This document shows, piece after piece, positions 627 to 15,731 of a stretch of DNA of 43,880 nt. Position numbers and translations under genes: made by a program. The notes below the pieces were generated by a model. The model was given only the letters and a program-made list of their open reading frames with translations, did not search any database and was not told where the DNA came from. This DNA comes from a virus (taxonomy: Duplodnaviria; Heunggongvirae; Uroviricota; Caudoviricetes), in the IMG/VR virus record IMGVR_UViG_3300045988_187204; one strand, written 5' to 3'. Position 1 is the first letter of the stretch, and each line of letters starts with the position of its first letter.

Positions 627-702
627 CGCGGTGTGGAGCAGTTGGTAGCTCGCCAGGCTCATAACCTGGAGGTCGCATGTTCGAGTCCTGCCGCCGCAAC
701 CA
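627..702 (+). tRNA. tRNA-Met (anticodon CAU), 76 nt with encoded CCA; initiator-like C1-A72 mismatch
   Basis: Cloverleaf folded by hand: acceptor CGCGGTG/CGCCGCA, D arm GAGC-AGTTGGTA-GCTC, anticodon arm CCAGG-CTCATAA-CCTGG with CAT at 660-662, variable loop AGGTC, T arm GCATG-TTCGAGT-CCTGC (one U-C mismatch), discriminator A, CCA 700-702. A CAU anticodon could also be tRNA-Ile2 (lysidine). Confidence 0.8.
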
Positions 703-818: not shown

Positions 819-1982
819 ATGACTGCAAAAGAAATTGATTTTTTGAGCTCGCGTGAAATAGTAGGTTTCACGCTGCCTGTGTTGCATACCAAGGGCGGTT
901 ACTGGTATGTTGACTTTACTGCCTTTGACCCTGTTTCGGGTCGGATGAAGCGCAAGAAATATATGCTTAATAGGTACAAGACTGACCACAAGAAGCGTAT
1001 GATGGGTACCTTGCTTATCCACAATATCACGGCAAAATTGACCGCTGGATGGAATCCTTGGGTGAATGCCGACAAGTCGAGACAATTCACCGAAATACCA
1101 ATTATCTTTAGTCGTTATCGTGATTATATTAAGTCGATGACCGACAAAAAGTCGATGAAGGAAAAGACCTCTATCGACTACCTCAGCCGCCTCAAGACTC
1201 TGGAGTCTTTCATCACTGAGTGCAAGAGTGTCAAATATGCCTATCAGATTGACCGTGCCTTCGCCATCGACTTCTTAGACCACCTGATGTATGACCGTGA
1301 TGTGAGTGCTACCACAAGAAACAACTATCGCTCTTGGCTTGTCTCCTTCGGCACTTGGCTTATGGATAGAAAATATATCAGCGAGAACCCTGCCATCGAC
1401 ATCAGAAACATCGCTCAGAAGGAGAAGTTCAGAGACCCTTTGACCGAGGGCGCGCTTAAGAAGCTGAAGACTTATCTCTATGATAACAACAGACATTTTC
1501 TCTTGGCTTGCCTCTTTGAATATTATACCTTTATCCGACCGAATGAGTTGACGCAGATAAGAATCAAAGATGTGTCGATTGCTGACCAGACGGTCTTTAT
1601 CAGTTCTGCCATCAGCAAGAACCGTAAGGACGGACTTGTGGCATTGAACGATGAAATCTTGAAGCTCATGATAGAGCTGAAGATATTTGAGCATCCGGGA
1701 CATTGTTTTATCTTTGGCAAGGGGTTGAAGCCTGGTGAGGAGCGAGCACCTTATAACCAACTGAGAGTAGAGTGGGGCAAGATGCGAGATGCTATTGGGT
1801 TTCCGAAGGAGTATCAGTTTTATAGCCTGAAGGACACTGGCATCAGGGATTTGGCGAACGCACAGGGTATCGTGGTCGCCAAGGATCAGGCACGCCACTC
1901 TGATATATCTGTGACGAATCGATATATCAAGAACCAGATGAAAGTGAACGAGGAGACCAAGCACTTCAAAGGTGGGCTTTAG
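819..1982 (+). CDS. int: Tyrosine site-specific integrase
   Basis: ATG at 819 checked; C-terminal ...ARHSDISVTNRYIK contains the H-x-x-R ... Y catalytic signature of tyrosine recombinases; sits immediately downstream of a tRNA gene. Confidence 0.85.
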   Translation: MTAKEIDFLSSREIVGFTLPVLHTKGGYWYVDFTAFDPVSGRMKRKKYMLNRYKTDHKKRMMGTLLIHNITAKLTAGWNPWVNADKSRQFTEIPIIFSRYRDYIKSMTDKKSMKEKTSIDYLSRLKTLESFITECKSVKYAYQIDRAFAIDFLDHLMYDRDVSATTRNNYRSWLVSFGTWLMDRKYISENPAIDIRNIAQKEKFRDPLTEGALKKLKTYLYDNNRHFLLACLFEYYTFIRPNELTQIRIKDVSIADQTVFISSAISKNRKDGLVALNDEILKLMIELKIFEHPGHCFIFGKGLKPGEERAPYNQLRVEWGKMRDAIGFPKEYQFYSLKDTGIRDLANAQGIVVAKDQARHSDISVTNRYIKNQMKVNEETKHFKGGL

Positions 1983-3971: not shown

Positions 3972-6900
3972 TTATTTGTTTGACTTCATTTTTTGATATT
4001 GGCTCCATTGGCGGTCGAAGCCATCGGGGCCGGTGATGACCACGTATGACTTGATGCCAGCATCGAGCTGTTGGTTGAGTCGGTCGATGGTGTTATGCAC
4101 GCTATCGAGGGATGCGCCCATCTGTTCGGTGTCGCCACCTGTGACGTTGACCACTGGGGCGACCACGGCTGCGCTGCCTGTGCCCATGGCACGGCTCACG
4201 TCTTGTGCGGTGAGCGAGGCGACAGTGTTGTTGCGCTGCGCCATATCGATGAGCTGCAGGGCAGGGAGGAGCTGAGGATTGTTGACGGCGTTGTGGTTGG
4301 CGACGAACTCGCCAGCGTGAACCACGCCAGCCTCTTTCTTGTAATTGCCAGGACCAGTGAAACCACCCTCGTAATAGCCAGCCGCCTCTGCCTGGTGCTG
4401 CTTTTTGATTGTTGCTATCTGGAGCATGCCCGCTGCGGTGGCGAGACCTGCGGCGATAGGACCAAGGATGTGACCCACCACTGGGATGGCTGCGGCTGAT
4501 GAGTAGGCGTTGATGGCAGCCATGGCGGTTGAAGCTATGGCTTGTGCGATCTCTATCTTCATCGCCTTTTTGTTGGCCTTGCTCTTGGCTGCAGCCACCT
4601 CTTTGTCTCGCTTCGCCTCGAGTCGCTTTTTCTTGGCTGAGTTGTTGCCAGCGGCAGAAATCTGCTTATCGTAGTTTTTCTCGATCTTGGCGACCTCTAG
4701 GTCTGAGCAGGCCTGAGAGTAGGCGGAGGCAGCGCCCATCATCGTGTTGATGCTGCTGAAGGCAGCGCCAGCGATGGAGGCTATCTCTTGATAGGTCTCT
4801 TTGTTCATCTGCTTTTTGGCATCTAGATAAGCCTGTTCGCTGATGTTGCCATCTCTACGTAGCTTGTCTAGATTATCGTTGACCATCTTTTGCTGTTGGA
4901 TGGCTGCGATGGCACCACCTGCGATTGTGGCGAGGTTGTCGCTGCCCATGGCATTACTGTTGTCGCCGTTGCCCTTGGTCATCTTTTTGGCGGTGTCGAG
5001 GGCGGTGTTGGCATCCTCTTTGCGCTGCTCGTCGGCGGTAGGCTTGTATGAGGCGTATTTGTTGGCGATGCCCATCTTTGTGCGCTGGTATTCCTCCTCT
5101 CTGATGAGACCTGCCTTGTAGATGGCTTCGAGCCCCTGCAGCTCTAGTTGCATCTGCTCTTCGTTGCCGAGCTTGCCGTATTCTTGGCGCAGCTGAAGGA
5201 GTTGTTCGTCGTGTTGCTTCTGAAGGTCGTATTTGCGTTGCTGTTGGGTCAGCTCTCGCTCTTTCTCGATCTGGGCGTACTCGTCAGATGAGGAGAGGTA
5301 GAGGGCTTGCTTTTTGTTGAGATAGTCCTGGTATGAGAGAAAGAGAGCCTCGTTGACGGCATCCTCATTGTGATAGAGGTTGGAGTCTTTGTTGTAGTAG
5401 TCTGCATTGAGCTTCATTTCTTTTTTCTGTCGCTCGGTCTCCAGGGCTTCGAGGTCGGCGGTCTGCTTCTTCTCGTAGTCGGCGGCGATATTCTCTTTCT
5501 CGGCGCTCAATCGCTTGTACTCTTCGCTCTCTGCCTCGCCATACTTTTTGAGGATGTCGAGGCGAGCCTGAAGCCCCTGCTCTTTGATATTCTTCATCTT
5601 CTCGTTGTATTCGGCGAGTCGAATCTGCCCCGTAGCGTAGAGTGTCTTGGCATCTAGCTCTTCGGCTTGGTTGGCTTTCTTGGCATCGTCTAGCTCTTTT
5701 TTCATGTCGGCCTTGCGCTTTGCCTCTGCCTTGCGAGCCGCAGCCTCACGCTTCTTTTTCTCCTTCTCGGCAGCCTTGCGCTCTTTCTCGGTCATGGTAT
5801 GACCAGAGGAAGGGGTGACGGGTGTCTCAGTAGTTGCGCTATTGTTTAGTAAATTCTTCTTTACAGTCTTGTTGTACTGTTTCTGTAAATTAACGTTTTT
5901 CTCTAATTGCTGATTATAGAAATTCTCTTCAGCATTGACTTTTTTTTGCAGGCTTAGGTTTGCCTGTAGTCTTTGCGTATGAATTTGCTTTTGCTTCTCG
6001 TTGCTCTTCAGTGCCTCGTTTTGTTCGATGAGCTGACCTGTCCATCCATCAGCCACGGCATTGCTCTCATATTGCTTAGGATGAGCCTTGCGCTCAGCAT
6101 CGACAGCCTTCAGAGAATATCGTATGCGGCTCTCTTTTTGTTTGAGTTTCAGTTTCTTTTTATTGATTTCCACTTTGCGTTCATAGATAGCTTCTGCCAT
6201 GGCAGCATTCTCTAGCTCCTTGATGTAGTTTTGGATGGCAATCTGATTGTCGTTATACAACTTGCCCTCTTTGGAGATAGAGGCGTGATATTCTGGGACG
6301 AGCTTTTGCATATTTGCGATAGCTTGCTTGCGCTCGTCAACGGTATAGGCATTGGAGTGGATAACCTTGTTGAGCATATCGACCTTGTTGCGCTCATCGA
6401 GGGTAGCATCAGACACTTTTTTGGCGAGGCTGGCTTGAGCCTCTGCCACAGCTCTGTTGTTTTTAGCCTCTTGCGTGTTGTTGCGCATCGCCTCATTGTA
6501 AGATGTTATGGCTTTGTATGCCCCATAGGCAGCCACGCCCACAACGGTGATTACCGTGGCGAGGGCAGCCCATGGATTGGTGAGACTGGCTAGGCGTGCC
6601 GCCCTCATCACCACGATGTAGCCCTGTATGCCTTTTGTGAGATAAGCCCATGTGGCTTGCAGTGCCACTAAGGCAGCACGCAAAAGGGTAGAAGTTGCAG
6701 CACAAGCTTTATCGACAGCTGAAGCGTATTGCACAGCGGCAGATTTAATCTTAATAGCGATTGTCTCCTTGTACCAGAGAGTAGTACAAACAGCGATGGC
6801 TGTTGACAGCACGGCTATTTGTTTGGCATAGGTGACGGTGAAGGTGATGAGTGTGGACATGACCTTTATAGTCAGGCTGAACGACGTGATGCCATATTTC

Positions 6901-10914: not shown

Positions 10915-11322
10915 TTAGACCTCTCTTGAGAGAATCTCCTTGGCTATCTCTTTGGCCTCTTTGCGCCACGACTGATAAGCCTCGAACTCTGCCTCGTGAG
11001 TCTCGTCGCCATCGCCACGGTTGGCTAGGATGGCCTCTACCTGGTTTTGGCTGTATCGGGTGCGAACCAAACCAGCGGTGAAATCGTCGTAGGTGGCTGC
11101 GGTCGCCTGAATCTTGGTCGAGCCATCAGGCTCTGTGCCCTCATAGCTGTAAGCAGTGACACCCTCGGAGTTTTCATCTTCTGACTGCTCTGAGGTATCG
11201 GAAGAGCCTGTAGCGGCCTCAGGGTGATAGTTTTCAACTTTCTGCTCACCAGTGTAGAGCAGATAATGGTTATCGTCATATTTGACGAAGCTCTTGCGAG
11301 CTAGATAATACTTCTTGTTCAT
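10915..11322 (-). CDS. Hypothetical acidic protein downstream of the DGR reverse transcriptase
   Basis: 135-aa ORF, D/E/S/T-rich (…SSDTSEQSEDENSEGVTAYSYEGTEPDGS…); 6-nt spacing from the RT stop suggests co-transcription. Confidence 0.45.
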   Translation of the reverse strand: MNKKYYLARKSFVKYDDNHYLLYTGEQKVENYHPEAATGSSDTSEQSEDENSEGVTAYSYEGTEPDGSTKIQATAATYDDFTAGLVRTRYSQNQVEAILANRGDGDETHEAEFEAYQSWRKEAKEIAKEILSREV

Positions 11323-11328
11323 AATTGA

Positions 11329-12972
11329 TCACGTGAATTTATAGAACTTCTTTTTGAATTTATTGTGAAGCTCTGCGACCACGGTGGAGAAGGGTAGCTC
11401 ATCACGACAGAAGTCGTTGAGGGCTTGGTCTATCAAGATCTTGGAGCCTGTATAGAGGTAGTGCTCCAGAGGTTGCCATACCTCGGTGCCGTCTGGCTCC
11501 AGGTGGTCGATGATGCGATAGCGTAGGGAGAGGCGCTTCTTGGGCACCTCTTTGGTGACCATGTGGGTGGAGCCGTCCGGGGCGGTCTCCTCTTGCTGGA
11601 TGGTCTCCTTCTCTATCACCGAGTCATCGACCTTGTAGTCTATCACTTGAACGAGGAACTTGTTCTCGTCCTGACCCTCACGGCAGATGATGTCCTCGAT
11701 GGACTGCTGCTGTGATTTCTCCATACCGTCAAAAGGCACGCGCGCACGGCGAGCCTTGACGAGTTTACCGAATCTTTCCATACCGATTTTCTTATATAAG
11801 TTTTTAGAGTTTGCGTGGATGCCCAGACCTAGGCGAGAGGCTGCCTTGAGCTGTATCTGGCGGTCTGTGAAGCCCGCCTTGCGTAAGTTGGCGATCTGTC
11901 TGCAGAGGTCGTGCTTGAACCGCTTGCGCAACAGGGCGTGGTCGGCGTAGATGATCTGACCGCAGAAGTCGATGCCATCGCAGGTGCGGTGGATACCCCA
12001 AGACTTATTGATGGATAGGTGCCAGTCACGGGCGAGGTGCATCACGGCAAGCTCTGCCATCAGCCTGAGGAACACCTTATCCTCGTGGAGGATGTAGATG
12101 TTGTCCATGAAGCGGTAATAATGGCGAAGACCTTGGCGGCAGAAGCGCTCGAACCTATCGTTGAGCGACTTCACTCCCCCGCATAGCAGTTGAGCTTGCT
12201 GCTGAGTGCGACAGGTAACGAGCATGTCGATCACGTAGCGAGCCTGCCAGTAACGGAACTTGTCGGTGTCTTGGAGAATGTCGAAGCATCGGAGTGCCAG
12301 GTAATCGAAGCGGGCGAGGAAGAGCTGACCCAAGAGTTGGGCGAGCTTGACGCCGAGCACGATGCCTGGATTGAAGCTATCGACCACCTCGTCGATGAAG
12401 GCGAGGAGCTTGCGGTCTTTGATCTTGCGGCGATATTCACTTTTGAGAAGAGCGTGGTCTATGCTCTGAAAATAATGGTGAATATCCATGGGCAAGCAGT
12501 AGAAGGTATCTTGCTGTGGCGAGTTGAAGATGTCTCGCTTGACAAGATTATAGAAATAATGGGTGCCCTTGCCCTTGGAACCAGCCGGACTGTGGCTGTA
12601 GAGTGTCTTGCGAAGGTTATCCTCTACAGGTTGCAGGGCAGCGTGCTGGATGACGTGGTCGATAACGGGCAGCTTGTTGACTTGGCGATGTTTTGGATAG
12701 TCGATATCTTTGGCGACATAGGCTGAGGTATGCCAAGTTTGTTGGGTGTAAGCATCGAGCATGCGTCCGATGTTATGGTCTAGGTTTGCCTCGAATTTTT
12801 GGACCGCACGGCGAGACATCTTTTGTCGGGCGTAGTCATAGAATGCCCGACGAAAGTTGTCTAGTGTCTCGACCTGTGGCGATATGTTGCCAAACCTTTT
12901 CATAAGCGGTGTAATGTCTGTGTTGAACGGTGTATAAACTGTGTATAGTCTGAATCGTCTGCTTTTGTACAC
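11329..12972 (-). CDS. Reverse transcriptase of a diversity-generating retroelement
   Basis: RT-like motifs in order: YFQSIDH (motif 2-like), GIVLGVKLAQLLGQLF (motif 4 with the DGR-typical [I/L]Gxxx[S/A]Q in place of QGxxxSP), RFMDNIYIL (motif C position), GIDFCGQII (motif 7-like); TR lies 140 bp upstream. Track start at 12972 is GTG; first in-frame ATG is at 12903. Confidence 0.85.
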   Translation of the reverse strand: MYKSRRFRLYTVYTPFNTDITPLMKRFGNISPQVETLDNFRRAFYDYARQKMSRRAVQKFEANLDHNIGRMLDAYTQQTWHTSAYVAKDIDYPKHRQVNKLPVIDHVIQHAALQPVEDNLRKTLYSHSPAGSKGKGTHYFYNLVKRDIFNSPQQDTFYCLPMDIHHYFQSIDHALLKSEYRRKIKDRKLLAFIDEVVDSFNPGIVLGVKLAQLLGQLFLARFDYLALRCFDILQDTDKFRYWQARYVIDMLVTCRTQQQAQLLCGGVKSLNDRFERFCRQGLRHYYRFMDNIYILHEDKVFLRLMAELAVMHLARDWHLSINKSWGIHRTCDGIDFCGQIIYADHALLRKRFKHDLCRQIANLRKAGFTDRQIQLKAASRLGLGIHANSKNLYKKIGMERFGKLVKARRARVPFDGMEKSQQQSIEDIICREGQDENKFLVQVIDYKVDDSVIEKETIQQEETAPDGSTHMVTKEVPKKRLSLRYRIIDHLEPDGTEVWQPLEHYLYTGSKILIDQALNDFCRDELPFSTVVAELHNKFKKKFYKFT

Positions 12973-13111
12973 TTGATAACCTTCGACCGGATGACCGTGT
13001 TGTCATCATCTACCAGCTGTCTTATTAATGTGTATGTATCGCCATGGGGCGAGGATTGACCCTGTAATCTCGAAGTGGGAGCAAACGACCCACGAAGAGA
13101 TATGTCTGTAA

Positions 13112-13233
13112 GTTGAGGGCGGCGCCGTAGTTCACATTGGCATTCGAGACAGCATTGTTCACGTTGAGCGTCGAAAGACCGCATTGACCACCATTGTTAG
13201 CGTTAGCACCACGAAGGCAGACACGAAAACCGG
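13112..13233 (-). repeat. DGR template repeat (TR)
   Basis: About 122 bp matching 13523-13644; across 13115-13233 all 12 differences are at TR adenines (sense strand), 0 of 97 non-adenine positions differ. Confidence 0.9.
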
Positions 13234-13267: not shown

Positions 13268-13275
13268 CAAAGGTA
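13268..13275 (-). promoter_or_regulatory. Putative -7 promoter element (TACCTTTG on - strand) upstream of TR-RT
   Basis: + strand CAAAGGTA at 13268-13275, about 35 nt upstream (- strand sense) of the TR. Confidence 0.35.
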
Positions 13276-13471: not shown

Positions 13472-14944
13472 TTAGGCCGCCTCGTAATACACGGGTTCAA
13501 CGGACCACTCGGATGCTGCTTCGCAGAGGGCGGCGCCGAAGTCCACATTGGCATACGAGACAGCAAAGCTCACGTAGAGCGTCGAAAGACCGCACCGACC
13601 ACCACTGCAAGCGTTAGCACCACGAAGGCAGACACGAAAACCGGATGTAGCGCCGCTAGTATTCCAGAAATAGCTAGTCCAATAGGTTGACTCGGATGCG
13701 CCCGTGGCGGTCGGGAAGTTCTCCAGATGCTCCATCGAGAGCGTCTTGATAAAGCCTTCGCCCTTGGTCGGCGAGGTGCTGTAAGCCACCATGCCATCGG
13801 CGGAACCTATCGTCCACGTGCCGTAGATGGACGGTGCCACGAGATGGGTCACGGAAGTGTCCTCGTTGCAACGCACCTGCTCGTCATCCATGTGTCGCCA
13901 CAATAAGCCGAAGCCATTTTTGTAGCCGAAGAAGGATGGTATCTTGGCGGTATAGACCACGGTGCCATCGTCTTTTTTGACCTCGTAGCTCGCCTCGCCG
14001 CAAGCGTCGCCCAGCTCGATGCCGGCAGACATCGGCACGATAGGGCGATAGCCGTTGTAACCACCCCAATCAGGCATCTGTGTCACGCCAGCTCCGAGAC
14101 CACCCTGGTAGAGACCGTTGGCATCTTTTTGGCTGTTGATGGCATCCTGGTCGTAGTGGGTGCCGAAGATGACCCCGAAGAGCACGGCGATGGCAGAGGT
14201 GTGGCGCATGGTGGTGCAGAGCCAGCCTGTACCATTCTTGCGGGCTGCGGCACGCCAGTATTCGGTAGTCTGGTTGGTGGCAGCCTTGCCCAGCATGGTG
14301 CGGTTGGTGTTATCTAACGTTGAGTCGTTGTTGCCGCCTCGGTAGTCTGTGCCCTCGTTGATGTAGCTCACCAGCTTGCCTGTGCTGCGCTCTAGCGTGG
14401 CGAAGCCAGCGGCGGAGATGCTGCCCACAGGTATCTTGTAGTTGTACTCGCCAGGTATTGGCGTAGGGCTGACCATCTCGTAATGGAGTCTGCCCACGGT
14501 CTTGATGACCATGTACCACTCCTTGCCCCAGCCCCACTGGTAATGCCCCTCTGAGCCATCGAGCTTGGCTGTCTCGCCGGTGGCATACTTGTGGTGGTCT
14601 TTGGAGTCGAGCTTGCGACGGGAGTGGTCATTCTTGACCAGATAACAGCCCAGACCCAGCTCCGTTGGTAGGGTCTGCAGTAACTCTAGCGAGCCCACAT
14701 AAGTGGCGGCTTTAGGGGTTGCATTGTCGAGGTTCCACACTCGACCACACCAAGGATGCTGTCCCATTTGGACGGCGCTTTTGAGCGACATCTGCTCAGA
14801 CCTGCCGGATTTTTTGTCGAAGACCTCGACAATCTTGTCAGTGGCGCTCATGTCTGACTGTGGGAGGTCGTCAACCTGTTGACCTCCATCGAAAGCGGCT
14901 ATGATAGCCTTGAGCTTACTCTCTTCTTCTGATGTTAATGCCAT
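13472..14944 (-). CDS. DGR target (variable) protein; C-terminal variable region, likely receptor-binding virion protein
   Basis: ORF track 13472..14992; start refined to ATG at 14944 (MALTSEEESK…); C-terminus …GFRVCLRGANACSGGRCGLSTLYVSFAVSYANVDFGAA… is the VR (TR encodes …GFRVCLRGANANNGGQCGLSTLNVNNAVSNANVNYGAA…); C-lectin/FGE-like fold is inferred, not shown. Confidence 0.85.
   Translation of the reverse strand: MALTSEEESKLKAIIAAFDGGQQVDDLPQSDMSATDKIVEVFDKKSGRSEQMSLKSAVQMGQHPWCGRVWNLDNATPKAATYVGSLELLQTLPTELGLGCYLVKNDHSRRKLDSKDHHKYATGETAKLDGSEGHYQWGWGKEWYMVIKTVGRLHYEMVSPTPIPGEYNYKIPVGSISAAGFATLERSTGKLVSYINEGTDYRGGNNDSTLDNTNRTMLGKAATNQTTEYWRAAARKNGTGWLCTTMRHTSAIAVLFGVIFGTHYDQDAINSQKDANGLYQGGLGAGVTQMPDWGGYNGYRPIVPMSAGIELGDACGEASYEVKKDDGTVVYTAKIPSFFGYKNGFGLLWRHMDDEQVRCNEDTSVTHLVAPSIYGTWTIGSADGMVAYSTSPTKGEGFIKTLSMEHLENFPTATGASESTYWTSYFWNTSGATSGFRVCLRGANACSGGRCGLSTLYVSFAVSYANVDFGAALCEAASEWSVEPVYYEAA
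13523..13644 (-). repeat. DGR variable repeat (VR) inside the 3' end of the target gene
   Basis: Direct alignment with the TR (offset 411 bp); ends 17 codons before the stop at 13472. Confidence 0.9.
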
Positions 14945-14966
14945 AATAAAAATTATATTTAATCGA

Positions 14967-15731
14967 TTAAACAATGCGTAATTTATCACCAACTTTTCTA
15001 AGCTTGCCCGATGCCGACAGGCGAAGGCGAGGCTGGCGCACGGTGATGCTGACCTCTTGCCAGAGCGGTGTGTTGGCGGTGGGGATGACCCAGAACTTGG
15101 TGGTGCCCTCGCCCTTGATGATGAGGTTGCCGCTTGGGTCTGCCACGAGCGAGTCGCCCTCGGCTCGCTGGAAGAGCACGCTCTGAGGGAGGTAGCTCGG
15201 CAGGATCTGCACGGCGATGCGCTGAGCCACCTTGTTGCGTAGGCTTATCTCGGGGAGATAGGTCAGGTTCATGCGAGCTGGCGCGATGAAGCCTGTGGTT
15301 ATCTGAGCGGCGAGACCATCCATCTGCGCTATCTTGGCATCGGCTCGCTTGGATGCCGCGTCAGCCTCTGCAGCCTTGGTCTCTGCCAAGGCTGCCTGTG
15401 ATGCTGCAGCCTCGCCCTGCTCGCCAGCCGCCTTGGCTGCGCTCTGGGCGAGGTTAGCCGCCTTGTTGGCATCGTCGGCCGCACCCTGCGCTCTGACGGT
15501 CGGTGTCTTGTCGAGCCACAAGCGCCACTTGGCGTTGGTATCTGAAGGAGTCGTCGTGTTGCCATCCTCTAGGGAGGCGAAGACTCCTGACGATGTGTGA
15601 ACGATGTCGCCCTCGTCGTAGCCCTTGACGGTCTGGCCATCCTCATCTTGATAGGAGTAGCCCGACTGCCAGGTGCCCTGGTCGGTGAAGGCGACATTGC
15701 CCACGATAATGATGTTTGTGTTATCTGCCAT
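14967..15731 (-). CDS. Virion protein in the tail-fibre cluster (Ala/Gln-rich central segment), function unassigned
   Basis: 254-aa ORF, ATG at 15731; immediately upstream of the DGR target gene. Confidence 0.45.
   Translation of the reverse strand: MADNTNIIIVGNVAFTDQGTWQSGYSYQDEDGQTVKGYDEGDIVHTSSGVFASLEDGNTTTPSDTNAKWRLWLDKTPTVRAQGAADDANKAANLAQSAAKAAGEQGEAAASQAALAETKAAEADAASKRADAKIAQMDGLAAQITTGFIAPARMNLTYLPEISLRNKVAQRIAVQILPSYLPQSVLFQRAEGDSLVADPSGNLIIKGEGTTKFWVIPTANTPLWQEVSITVRQPRLRLSASGKLRKVGDKLRIV

Follow-up and report, generated by a model that had tools for sequence, protein, structure and literature searches.

The 43,880-nucleotide stretch of Caudoviricetes DNA analyzed here (IMG/VR record IMGVR_UViG_3300045988_187204; hereafter, the window) carries on its minus strand a diversity-generating retroelement (DGR). 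Its elements are a tail-protein gene ending in a variable repeat (VR), a template repeat (TR), an RT-17 RNA motif and a reverse transcriptase (RT) gene (Table 1). The first-pass annotation of the window, made from the sequence alone, observed that this RT reads F-M-D-N where the catalytic Y-x-D-D box is expected, and offered three explanations: a sequencing error, a very recent inactivation, or a genuinely divergent active site. Judged by comparison with its relatives, motif C of this RT is a real, conserved, non-canonical active site, and the gene probably encodes a functional DGR RT with a naturally remodeled catalytic center.

Placement of motif C in the reverse transcriptase

At positions 12111-12100 the minus strand reads TTC ATG GAC AAC (context ...LRHYYRFMDNIYILHEDK...), the very codons initially described, and they specify F-M-D-N within ...HYYRFMDNIYIL.... 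The open reading frame (ORF) of the gene extends from a GTG at 12972 to 11329, and the number given to the Asn codon in the first-pass annotation, 291, counts from that GTG. The true start is almost certainly the ATG at 12903, because all homologs start at this ATG (M-x-R-x-G) and the RT-17 RNA overlies the GTG; the site is thus as first located, and its number becomes 268. On this numbering, H142, N268 and N299 are encoded by 12480-12478, 12102-12100 and 12009-12007, respectively (all minus strand).

The protein matches PHROG 1423 'reverse transcriptase' (E 7e-54), and a Pfam scan of the RT, the target gene and their neighbors found neither RVT_1 nor Avd. When a profile built from 39 diverse homologs (alignment A1) was compared with the PDB, the top match was the RT of Bordetella phage BPP-1, bRT (8ub7_A, E 7.5e-35), with group II intron RTs next. 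In the profile alignment, 'rhyyRFvDnivilHeDk' lies opposite bRT 'RHWARYMDDIVVLGDD' (bRT residues 208 onward), and the family RFvDN falls on bRT R-Y-M-D215-D216. The catalytic aspartates reported with the bRT structure are D138, D215 and D216; in the alignment they correspond to D140, D267 and N268. An AlphaFold2 model of the RT (predicted local distance difference test score 86) contains a β-hairpin (E261-265/E268-273) with D267-N268 at the turn, and a Foldseek search with this model again returned bRT 8ub7_A as the best match (E 5.7e-16; TM 0.76 normalized to bRT). The best sequence and structure match of the window RT, bRT (PDB 8UB7 and related entries), has the same fold and motif order at a sequence identity of about 22%, with Y-M-D215-D216 in place of F-M-D-N. 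LGVKLAQ (motif 4) and GIDFCGQII (motif 7), between which the site had originally been placed, both match the corresponding bRT motifs.

The two enzymes differ in build. Whereas bRT has 328 residues and requires a separate Avd protein, the window RT has 524 residues, among them a 55-residue insertion and a 137-residue C-terminal domain, and no Avd-like gene was found. The insertion lies between motifs 4 and 5; bRT lacks it, as do most DGR RTs. In the profile alignment, positions 203-260 are unmatched in bRT (bRT residues 201-208), helices are predicted at residues 206-257, and the spacing between motifs 4 and 5 is about 80 residues, compared with 31 in canonical representatives. This insertion directly ahead of the site, together with the missing Pfam match, could raise the suspicion that motif C has been misassigned and that the real catalytic box lies elsewhere in the protein. 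However, the hidden Markov model alignment to bRT, the predicted β-hairpin and Foldseek all give the same placement. Nowhere in the entire protein is there a [YF]xDD; IIYADHALL, the look-alike first reported, was confirmed, and the sole Asp-Asp, K-V-D426-D427, is inside the C-terminal domain. We accordingly give misassignment practically no weight.

The RT palm, fingers and thumb with motifs 1-7 are present in the window protein, as is the DGR signature in motif 4; Y/F-x-D-D in motif 5 is the single classical DGR-RT feature that it lacks, and its clade membership rests on the other features. Position 188 of motif 4 is Ser or Ala in the family, with G184 and Q189 invariant; AQ is a natural variant of the motif 4 SQ (PMC3521204). 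Among the 39 diverse homologs, D140, H142, H143, F145, G184, K186, Q189, R264, F265, D267, N268 and N299 are invariant down to 35% identity, and the fingers residues K71/R73 and motif 4 are likewise invariant. Both by sequence and by structure comparison, D140 (motif 3, polymerase motif A) and D267 (first Asp of motif 5, polymerase motif C) are kept and the second Asp is N268. Loss of the motif A Asp or of the first motif C Asp, the mark of inactive RT-like pseudo-enzymes, was not observed: D140 and D267 are invariant. Together with the neighboring TR/VR pair and its adenine-only mismatches, the relationship to bRT bears out the initial identification of the gene as a DGR RT, and the alignment of RFvDN on bRT R-Y-M-D215-D216 bears out that of F-M-D-N as its motif C.

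Table 1. Elements of the DGR cassette and of its reverse transcriptase in the window
Feature	Position	Strand	Basis
Reverse transcriptase gene, DGR-type, 524 aa + stop	11329..12903	-	ORF, PHROG 1423, bRT profile and Foldseek matches
C-terminal domain, residues 388-524 (137 aa): long β-hairpins and a small α/β unit	11332..11742	-	
N299 in RT motif 6 (polymerase motif D region, L-S-I-N-K-S-W)	12007..12009	-	Family invariance, co-variation with N268
RT motif 5 (polymerase motif C), F265-M266-D267-N268 instead of Y-x-D-D	12100..12111	-	Sequence and bRT alignment
Helical insertion of ~55 residues between motifs 4 and 5, residues ~204-258	12130..12294	-	bRT profile gap, predicted helices
GGGGGAG, interrupted form of a length-variable G7 homopolymer	12174..12180	-	Comparison with related phages
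RT motif 4, L-G-V-K-L-A-Q, 'AQ' variant of the (I/V/L)GxxxSQ DGR signature	12337..12357	-	Invariant G184, K186, Q189
RT motif 3 (polymerase motif A), D140-I-H142-H143-Y-F, with the catalytic Asp (D140) kept	12469..12486	-	bRT alignment, invariance
RT-17 RNA motif (Rfam RF03020), TR-RT spacer	12955..13056	-	59.9 bits vs gathering score 40.4, full model matched
Template repeat (TR), 122 nt, 24 adenines	13112..13233	-	Direct repeat and alignment
Variable repeat (VR), 3' end of target gene	13523..13644	-	Alignment to TR
DGR target gene, tail protein, C-terminus encoded by VR	13472..14992	-	ORF; PHROG 5302 'tail protein', E 4e-59

Conservation, coupling and recurrence of the Asp-Asn state

A search of 5.8 billion proteins returned 260 relatives of the window RT. 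When the query and the 120 relatives listed were aligned with MAFFT, the motif C columns read R-F-[A/V/M]-D-N in 120 of the 121 sequences (35-92% identity), the sole exception being P0078 with R-L-A-D-D. IMG/VR holds 329 relatives; 80 viral loci were fetched and combined with 41 loci from bacterial genomes to give a set of 121 related loci. RF[M/A]DN was found in every intact RT of the 80 viral loci and D-N in all 41 bacterial-genome loci, including those of the cultured Segatella copri OF03-3 and iAP1412, Prevotella merdae and P. lacticifex; in the lone frameshifted copy among the bacterial-genome loci, the motif is still present in the shifted frame. This Asn is encoded by AAC in 52 loci and by AAT in 21, and the dN/dS of the RT gene, 0.03-0.12, indicates strong purifying selection.

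In favor of an error of sequencing or assembly, or of a G-to-A mutation that very recently inactivated the RT of this one genome, is that a single GAC-to-AAC transition suffices to produce F-M-D-N. However, Asn occurs in 120 of the 121 aligned sequences, in every readable copy among the 121 loci and in hundreds of independent assemblies, isolate genomes included, while the use of both Asn codons and the strong purifying selection do not fit a fresh lesion. The comparison of homologs for Asp versus Asn that the first-pass annotation had called for thus excludes both an error and a recent inactivation, leaving them next to no probability, and what stands of its three options is the divergent active site. 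The D-N state is old and stable, and it appears to be functional.

The family contains genuine RT inactivations, and these never affect motif C. In-frame nonsense codons interrupt the RT gene of five related phages (L020, L039, L056, L060 and L073), several of them TGG to TAG/TGA changes, and these loci still have VRs mutated at adenines. In most relatives from S. copri phages, the Gly-Gly codons about 20 codons upstream of F-M-D-N form a G7 homopolymer, and out-of-frame tract lengths truncate the RT in seven loci: G8 in L061, L065 and L070, G9 in L068, G6 in L069 and in L090 (the isolate S. copri iAP1412), and a -1 allele in L072. In the window and in L001-L004, the tract is interrupted (GGGGGAG). 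The variation in poly-G length reflects either errors in sequencing the homopolymer or slipped-strand ON/OFF switching of the DGR.

The substitution at motif C does not stand alone. We compared 24 D-N and 98 D-D representatives column by column in MAFFT alignments; hmmalign, which put motif C at the wrong place in many rows when canonical RTs were aligned to the family profile, was abandoned. In the N299 column (motif 6, h-L-x-h-N-x-x), Asn is found in 23 of the 24 D-N representatives and in 20 of the 98 with D-D (Fisher p = 4.5e-12), 59 of the latter having Lys. In the H142 column (motif 3, D+2), His is found in 18 of 24 versus 13 of 98 (Fisher p = 8.5e-9), and Arg or Lys occupies this position in 54 of the D-D representatives. 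In the window RT, H142 and N299 thus fill two neighboring positions of the pocket at which most relatives carry a basic residue. The same association is seen between neighbors: the five independent D-N lineages P0179, P0184, P0201, P0213 and P0223 have the triad H-N-N (positions 142, 268 and 299), whereas their nearest D-D neighbors have R/K-D-K. A dedicated search with P0184 found [R/K]-D-K in 106 of 118 D-D relatives, and the only two D-N proteins that it retrieved, P0184 and P0271 (83% identical), are both H-N-N. We also considered D-I-H-H as a unique compensator and rejected it, since some D-D enzymes have H-H too, yet His at D+2 is strongly enriched with Asn. Intermediate triads occur in D-D sisters of the window RT, namely H-D-N in P0078 and P0126, H-D-K in P0132 and R-D-R in P0125. 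These intermediates suggest that the His and Asn changes, and with them the loss of basic residues, preceded the D-to-N substitution and made it acceptable.

The D-N state was also found outside the immediate family by a profile search of 1.84 billion cluster representatives. The insertion-bearing clade comprises D-N members and D-D members (P0125, P0126, P0129, P0131, P0132 and P0078), and nine DGR RT representatives of canonical length, with the 31-residue spacing of motifs 4 and 5, have Y-x-D-N (P0179, P0184, P0189, P0190, P0201, P0211, P0213, P0223 and P0267). Fitch parsimony on a neighbor-joining tree of 122 representatives gives about 10 changes between D and N, with D at the root; the raw count was 11, one of which was a regular-expression artifact at P0192, and the estimates of how frequent D-N is and how often it arose are based on 150 representatives and unsupported neighbor-joining trees. 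On this count, D-to-N appears to recur in about ten DGR-RT lineages, which is new here. The divergent active site proposed in the first-pass annotation is thus supported, and its coupling to two further substitutions and its recurrence in other DGR RT lineages had been missed.

Comparison with the nearest canonical enzymes places these changes in context. The canonical Bacteroidota DGR RTs of crAss-like phages and Bacteroides prophages ('IGNYLSQ / YADD') belong to the same clade and come from the same host phylum, are 25-30% identical to the window RT over the RT domain and show the same TR/VR signature. Motif 3 D+2 is [R/K] in these enzymes, motif 5 keeps Asp-Asp and motif 6 has Lys (106/118), in contrast to His, Asp-Asn and Asn in the window. 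The D-D sisters (P0078, P0125, P0126, P0129, P0132 and the locus L123) share the length, the 55-residue insertion and the C-terminal domain of the window RT and the cassette layout with an adenine-mutated VR and, unlike the window RT, keep [YLF]-A-D-D; L123 also has the same RT-17 RNA.

Signs of activity at the TR/VR pair and the rest of the cassette

The window has what defines a DGR: a TR adjoins the RT gene, the target gene ends at its 3' side in the cognate VR, and the two repeats differ at TR adenines only. All 14 mismatches between TR and VR fall on TR adenines (hypergeometric P = 2.3e-12). Apart from the VR, no further copy of the TR sequence was found in the window, and no second RT is encoded there. 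In the related loci, TR/VR pairs were identified with base-neutral scoring, in which all mismatches are weighted alike. A pair was found in 106 of the 121 loci, with 1146 of 1239 mismatches at TR adenines and 93 at the other three bases, adenine making up only 19% of the TR. Across these loci, 48% of the TR adenines are altered, and a density of about 50% has been reported for canonical Bacteroides and Bordetella DGRs.

The TR is identical in the window, L001-L004 and L061, and their VRs differ at 23 columns, 21 of which are TR-adenine positions. L001 and L003 have 28 differences in 13,572 bases, and 15 of these lie within the 122-nt VR. Rare non-adenine changes were seen as well: one variable VR column among the six close relatives is a TR thymine, and in the L001 VR (5260-5381), where GACTCT stands for the GCCAAT of the TR, one change falls on a TR cytosine. 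Three loci with independent Y-M-D-N enzymes (L125, L126 and L129) also have adenine-biased TR/VR pairs, with 14/15, 22/30 and 12/13 mismatches at adenine; this test covered the Y-M-D-N loci with long contigs, those of P0190 and P0267 being too short upstream. These patterns are strong comparative evidence that phages with the F-x-D-N enzyme diversify their VRs now.

The DGR of BPP-1 follows the same logic, with the TR next to the RT gene, the VR at the 3' end of a tail or receptor-binding gene, and adenine-only differences. Both cassettes have a structured RNA located between their TR and their RT gene, RT-10 in BPP-1 and RT-17 in the window. The authors of the RT motifs showed RT-10 to lie at this place in BPP-1 and guessed that the other RT motifs belong to other DGRs. 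RT-17, an orphan motif known as 'near RT genes', is by its location the positional counterpart of the BPP-1 spacer RNA and RT-10. It occurs at the same place in L038, L045, L064, L074 and L094 and in the D-D sister locus L123, and was below the gathering score in three F-V-D-N loci (L099, L104 and L116) and in L079 (F-A-D-N). From this distribution, RT-17 can now be assigned to the clade of the window RT.

No Avd or HRDC was detected by Pfam in the neighboring ORFs, where a divergent accessory protein is possible. Only about 240 nt separate the stop codon of the target gene from the TR, which leaves no room for an accessory gene between them. The C-terminal domain of the RT, for which no solved homolog was found, is described as OB-like; about 20% of DGR RTs carry uncharacterized C-terminal extensions. 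An apparent array of 53 copies of its motif in P0142 (7945 residues) proved to be piled-up chance hits of 7.5 bits to a cadherin-like repeat and was discarded. Directly downstream of the RT gene is a 135-residue acidic ORF (10915-11322, minus strand) that matched nothing in Pfam, PHROG or the PDB; in L123 (126 residues) and L125 (115 residues), too, a small ORF comes after the RT gene. A TACCTTTG box read by eye at 13268-13275 (minus strand), about 35 nt upstream of the TR, is a candidate promoter position for a TR-RT-17-RT transcript, and it fits the Bacteroidota -7 promoter consensus, TAnnTTTG.

In the wider window, a tRNA-Met gene (627-702, plus strand) lies directly upstream of a tyrosine-integrase-like gene (819-1982, plus strand; PHROG 1 integrase), which suggests that the window represents a prophage, either inserted at a tRNA attachment site or with such a site of its own. 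Its closest cultured hosts are S. copri strains, and the D-N DGR family is common in human-gut and rumen Bacteroidales phages.

Active-site model and alternative explanations

To our knowledge, right-hand polymerases universally need one motif A carboxylate and the first motif C carboxylate to hold two metal ions. The second acidic residue of motif C is not universal among them, and a Lys of motif D is the proposed general acid. The L polymerases of Mononegavirales carry G-D-N as motif C, as opposed to the G-D-D of other RNA-dependent RNA polymerases, and are active. They are a mechanistic analogy only: these are RNA-dependent RNA polymerases, with no homology to the window RT beyond the palm fold. 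Among RTs, the group II intron-like G2L4 enzyme has Y-I-D-D for Y-A-D-D, in which the 'x' is altered and both aspartates are kept, and provides a precedent for natural motif 5 changes that retune RT function (10.1101/2022.03.14.484287).

We propose that the window RT still copies a TR transcript, which probably includes the RT-17 RNA as a spacer or priming structure, into adenine-mutagenized cDNA that overwrites the VR of the tail-protein gene, as comparative genomics indicates. Judged from polymerase chemistry, D140 and D267 would support two-carboxylate, two-metal catalysis, and N268 would contribute a neutral ligand or a hydrogen bond at most. In most nearby DGR RTs, the second Asp, the Arg/Lys of motif 3 and the Lys of motif 6 presumably make up one charged cluster. 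Neutral or titratable residues would stand in for this entire cluster in the H-N-N enzymes, with Asn and His giving hydrogen bonds or weak metal or phosphate contacts, and the change from R/K-D-K to H-N-N would keep the pocket electrostatically balanced. The likely cost is a lower catalytic efficiency or a shifted metal preference, which could be tolerated because a DGR needs just a cDNA of about 120 nt. The second 'catalytic' aspartate thus seems dispensable in this RT class.

Several considerations weigh against this interpretation. The evidence for activity is comparative throughout, and TR/VR patterns are a record of past events. Where motif C lies, that it is conserved, the coupling and the adenine-specific VR turnover are observed, whereas catalysis by the window RT, spatial contact of residues 142, 268 and 299, and the kinetic consequences are inferred. 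The proximity of the three residues is presumed from general polymerase architecture, and a host-encoded DGR RT may act in trans. Single D186 mutants of HIV-1 RT are reported to be dead, and 'YMDD to SMAA' or 'DD to NN' are standard dead-enzyme controls. For D186N, our literature search found double mutants only, and the D185N + D186N double mutant of HIV-1 RT loses polymerase activity. No paper reporting cDNA synthesis by any Y/F-x-D-N RT was found. Finally, the profile used for ranking itself contains Asn, so the D-N share is perhaps slightly inflated, and the neighbor-joining trees have no support values.

One alternative is a catalytically dead but conserved pseudo-enzyme, for instance an RNA-binding scaffold, with the VR diversified in trans by a host or co-resident RT. 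Such a protein could lack an Asp pair whose equivalent is regarded as essential in retroviral RTs, could lack the putative motif 6 Lys too, and could fail to score with Pfam RVT_1, as the window RT does. It would not be expected to keep D140, D267, motif 4 and the fingers residues K71/R73 invariant. Furthermore, the phage has no other RT, and each subclade has its own TR and its own VR, mutated only at the adenines of that TR. This match holds across Prevotellaceae, Rikenellaceae and Muribaculaceae hosts, so a compatible RT would be needed from each of these hosts. The TR, the RT-17 RNA and the RT gene also remain physically linked, and where the family does lose RT function, it is by frameshift or nonsense codon and not by a change in motif C. 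We regard a dead enzyme as quite improbable.

The enzyme might instead be active, with Asn not a neutral, compensated change but a selected attenuator of activity, processivity or metal dependence that limits the cost of hypermutation. Other apparent off-switches, the length-variable poly-G tract and the nonsense alleles, are present in about 10% of the loci, and the D-N state is stable across deep divergence. However, the proportion of altered TR adenines is the same as in canonical DGRs, and the coupled H142 and N299 changes look compensatory rather than purely attenuating. Attenuation is thus unlikely, if a shade less so than a dead enzyme. A functional RT with a remodeled active site remains the explanation that we favor.

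A more general interpretation, which we advance tentatively and with the balance slightly against it, is that the third 'catalytic' Asp of RTs is not universally required and that a fully functional two-carboxylate site may have originated about ten times in DGR RTs via the same coupled triple change (R/K to His in motif 3, Asp to Asn in motif 5 and Lys to Asn in motif 6). The Segatella/Prevotella phage clade, which would work with its OB-like C-terminal domain and the RT-17 RNA in place of Avd, would be its largest radiation. If this is true, the second Asp makes up an electrostatic unit with the Lys of motif 6, exchangeable as a block, and the H-N-N enzymes offer a natural experiment on how RT catalysis uses metals, transfers protons and achieves fidelity.

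In the textbook and survey view, both Y-x-D-D aspartates are invariant and essential; the two motif 5 aspartates were stated to be 100% conserved in 155 DGR RTs (PMC3521204), and the D-N family, large and abundant, shows population-level signs of ongoing adenine mutagenesis. That survey was the only explicit published statement on motif 5 Asp conservation that we found, and the later large DGR surveys that could be searched contain no discussion of motif 5 variation. Looking in the literature for Y/F-x-D-N in connection with RTs turned up nothing but unrelated acronyms, with not all journals covered and an earlier mention possible, and 'second aspartate' led to text on Toprim and transposases, not RTs.

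Motif filters that demand YxDD will lose real, active DGRs, and Pfam RVT_1 already misses the window RT. The recurrent H-N-N triad provides a concrete, testable hypothesis on active-site residues acting as a unit. Finally, the cassette indicates an Avd-independent DGR architecture, composed of the RT, its OB-like domain and the RT-17 RNA, which could be a simpler chassis for DGR-based directed evolution.

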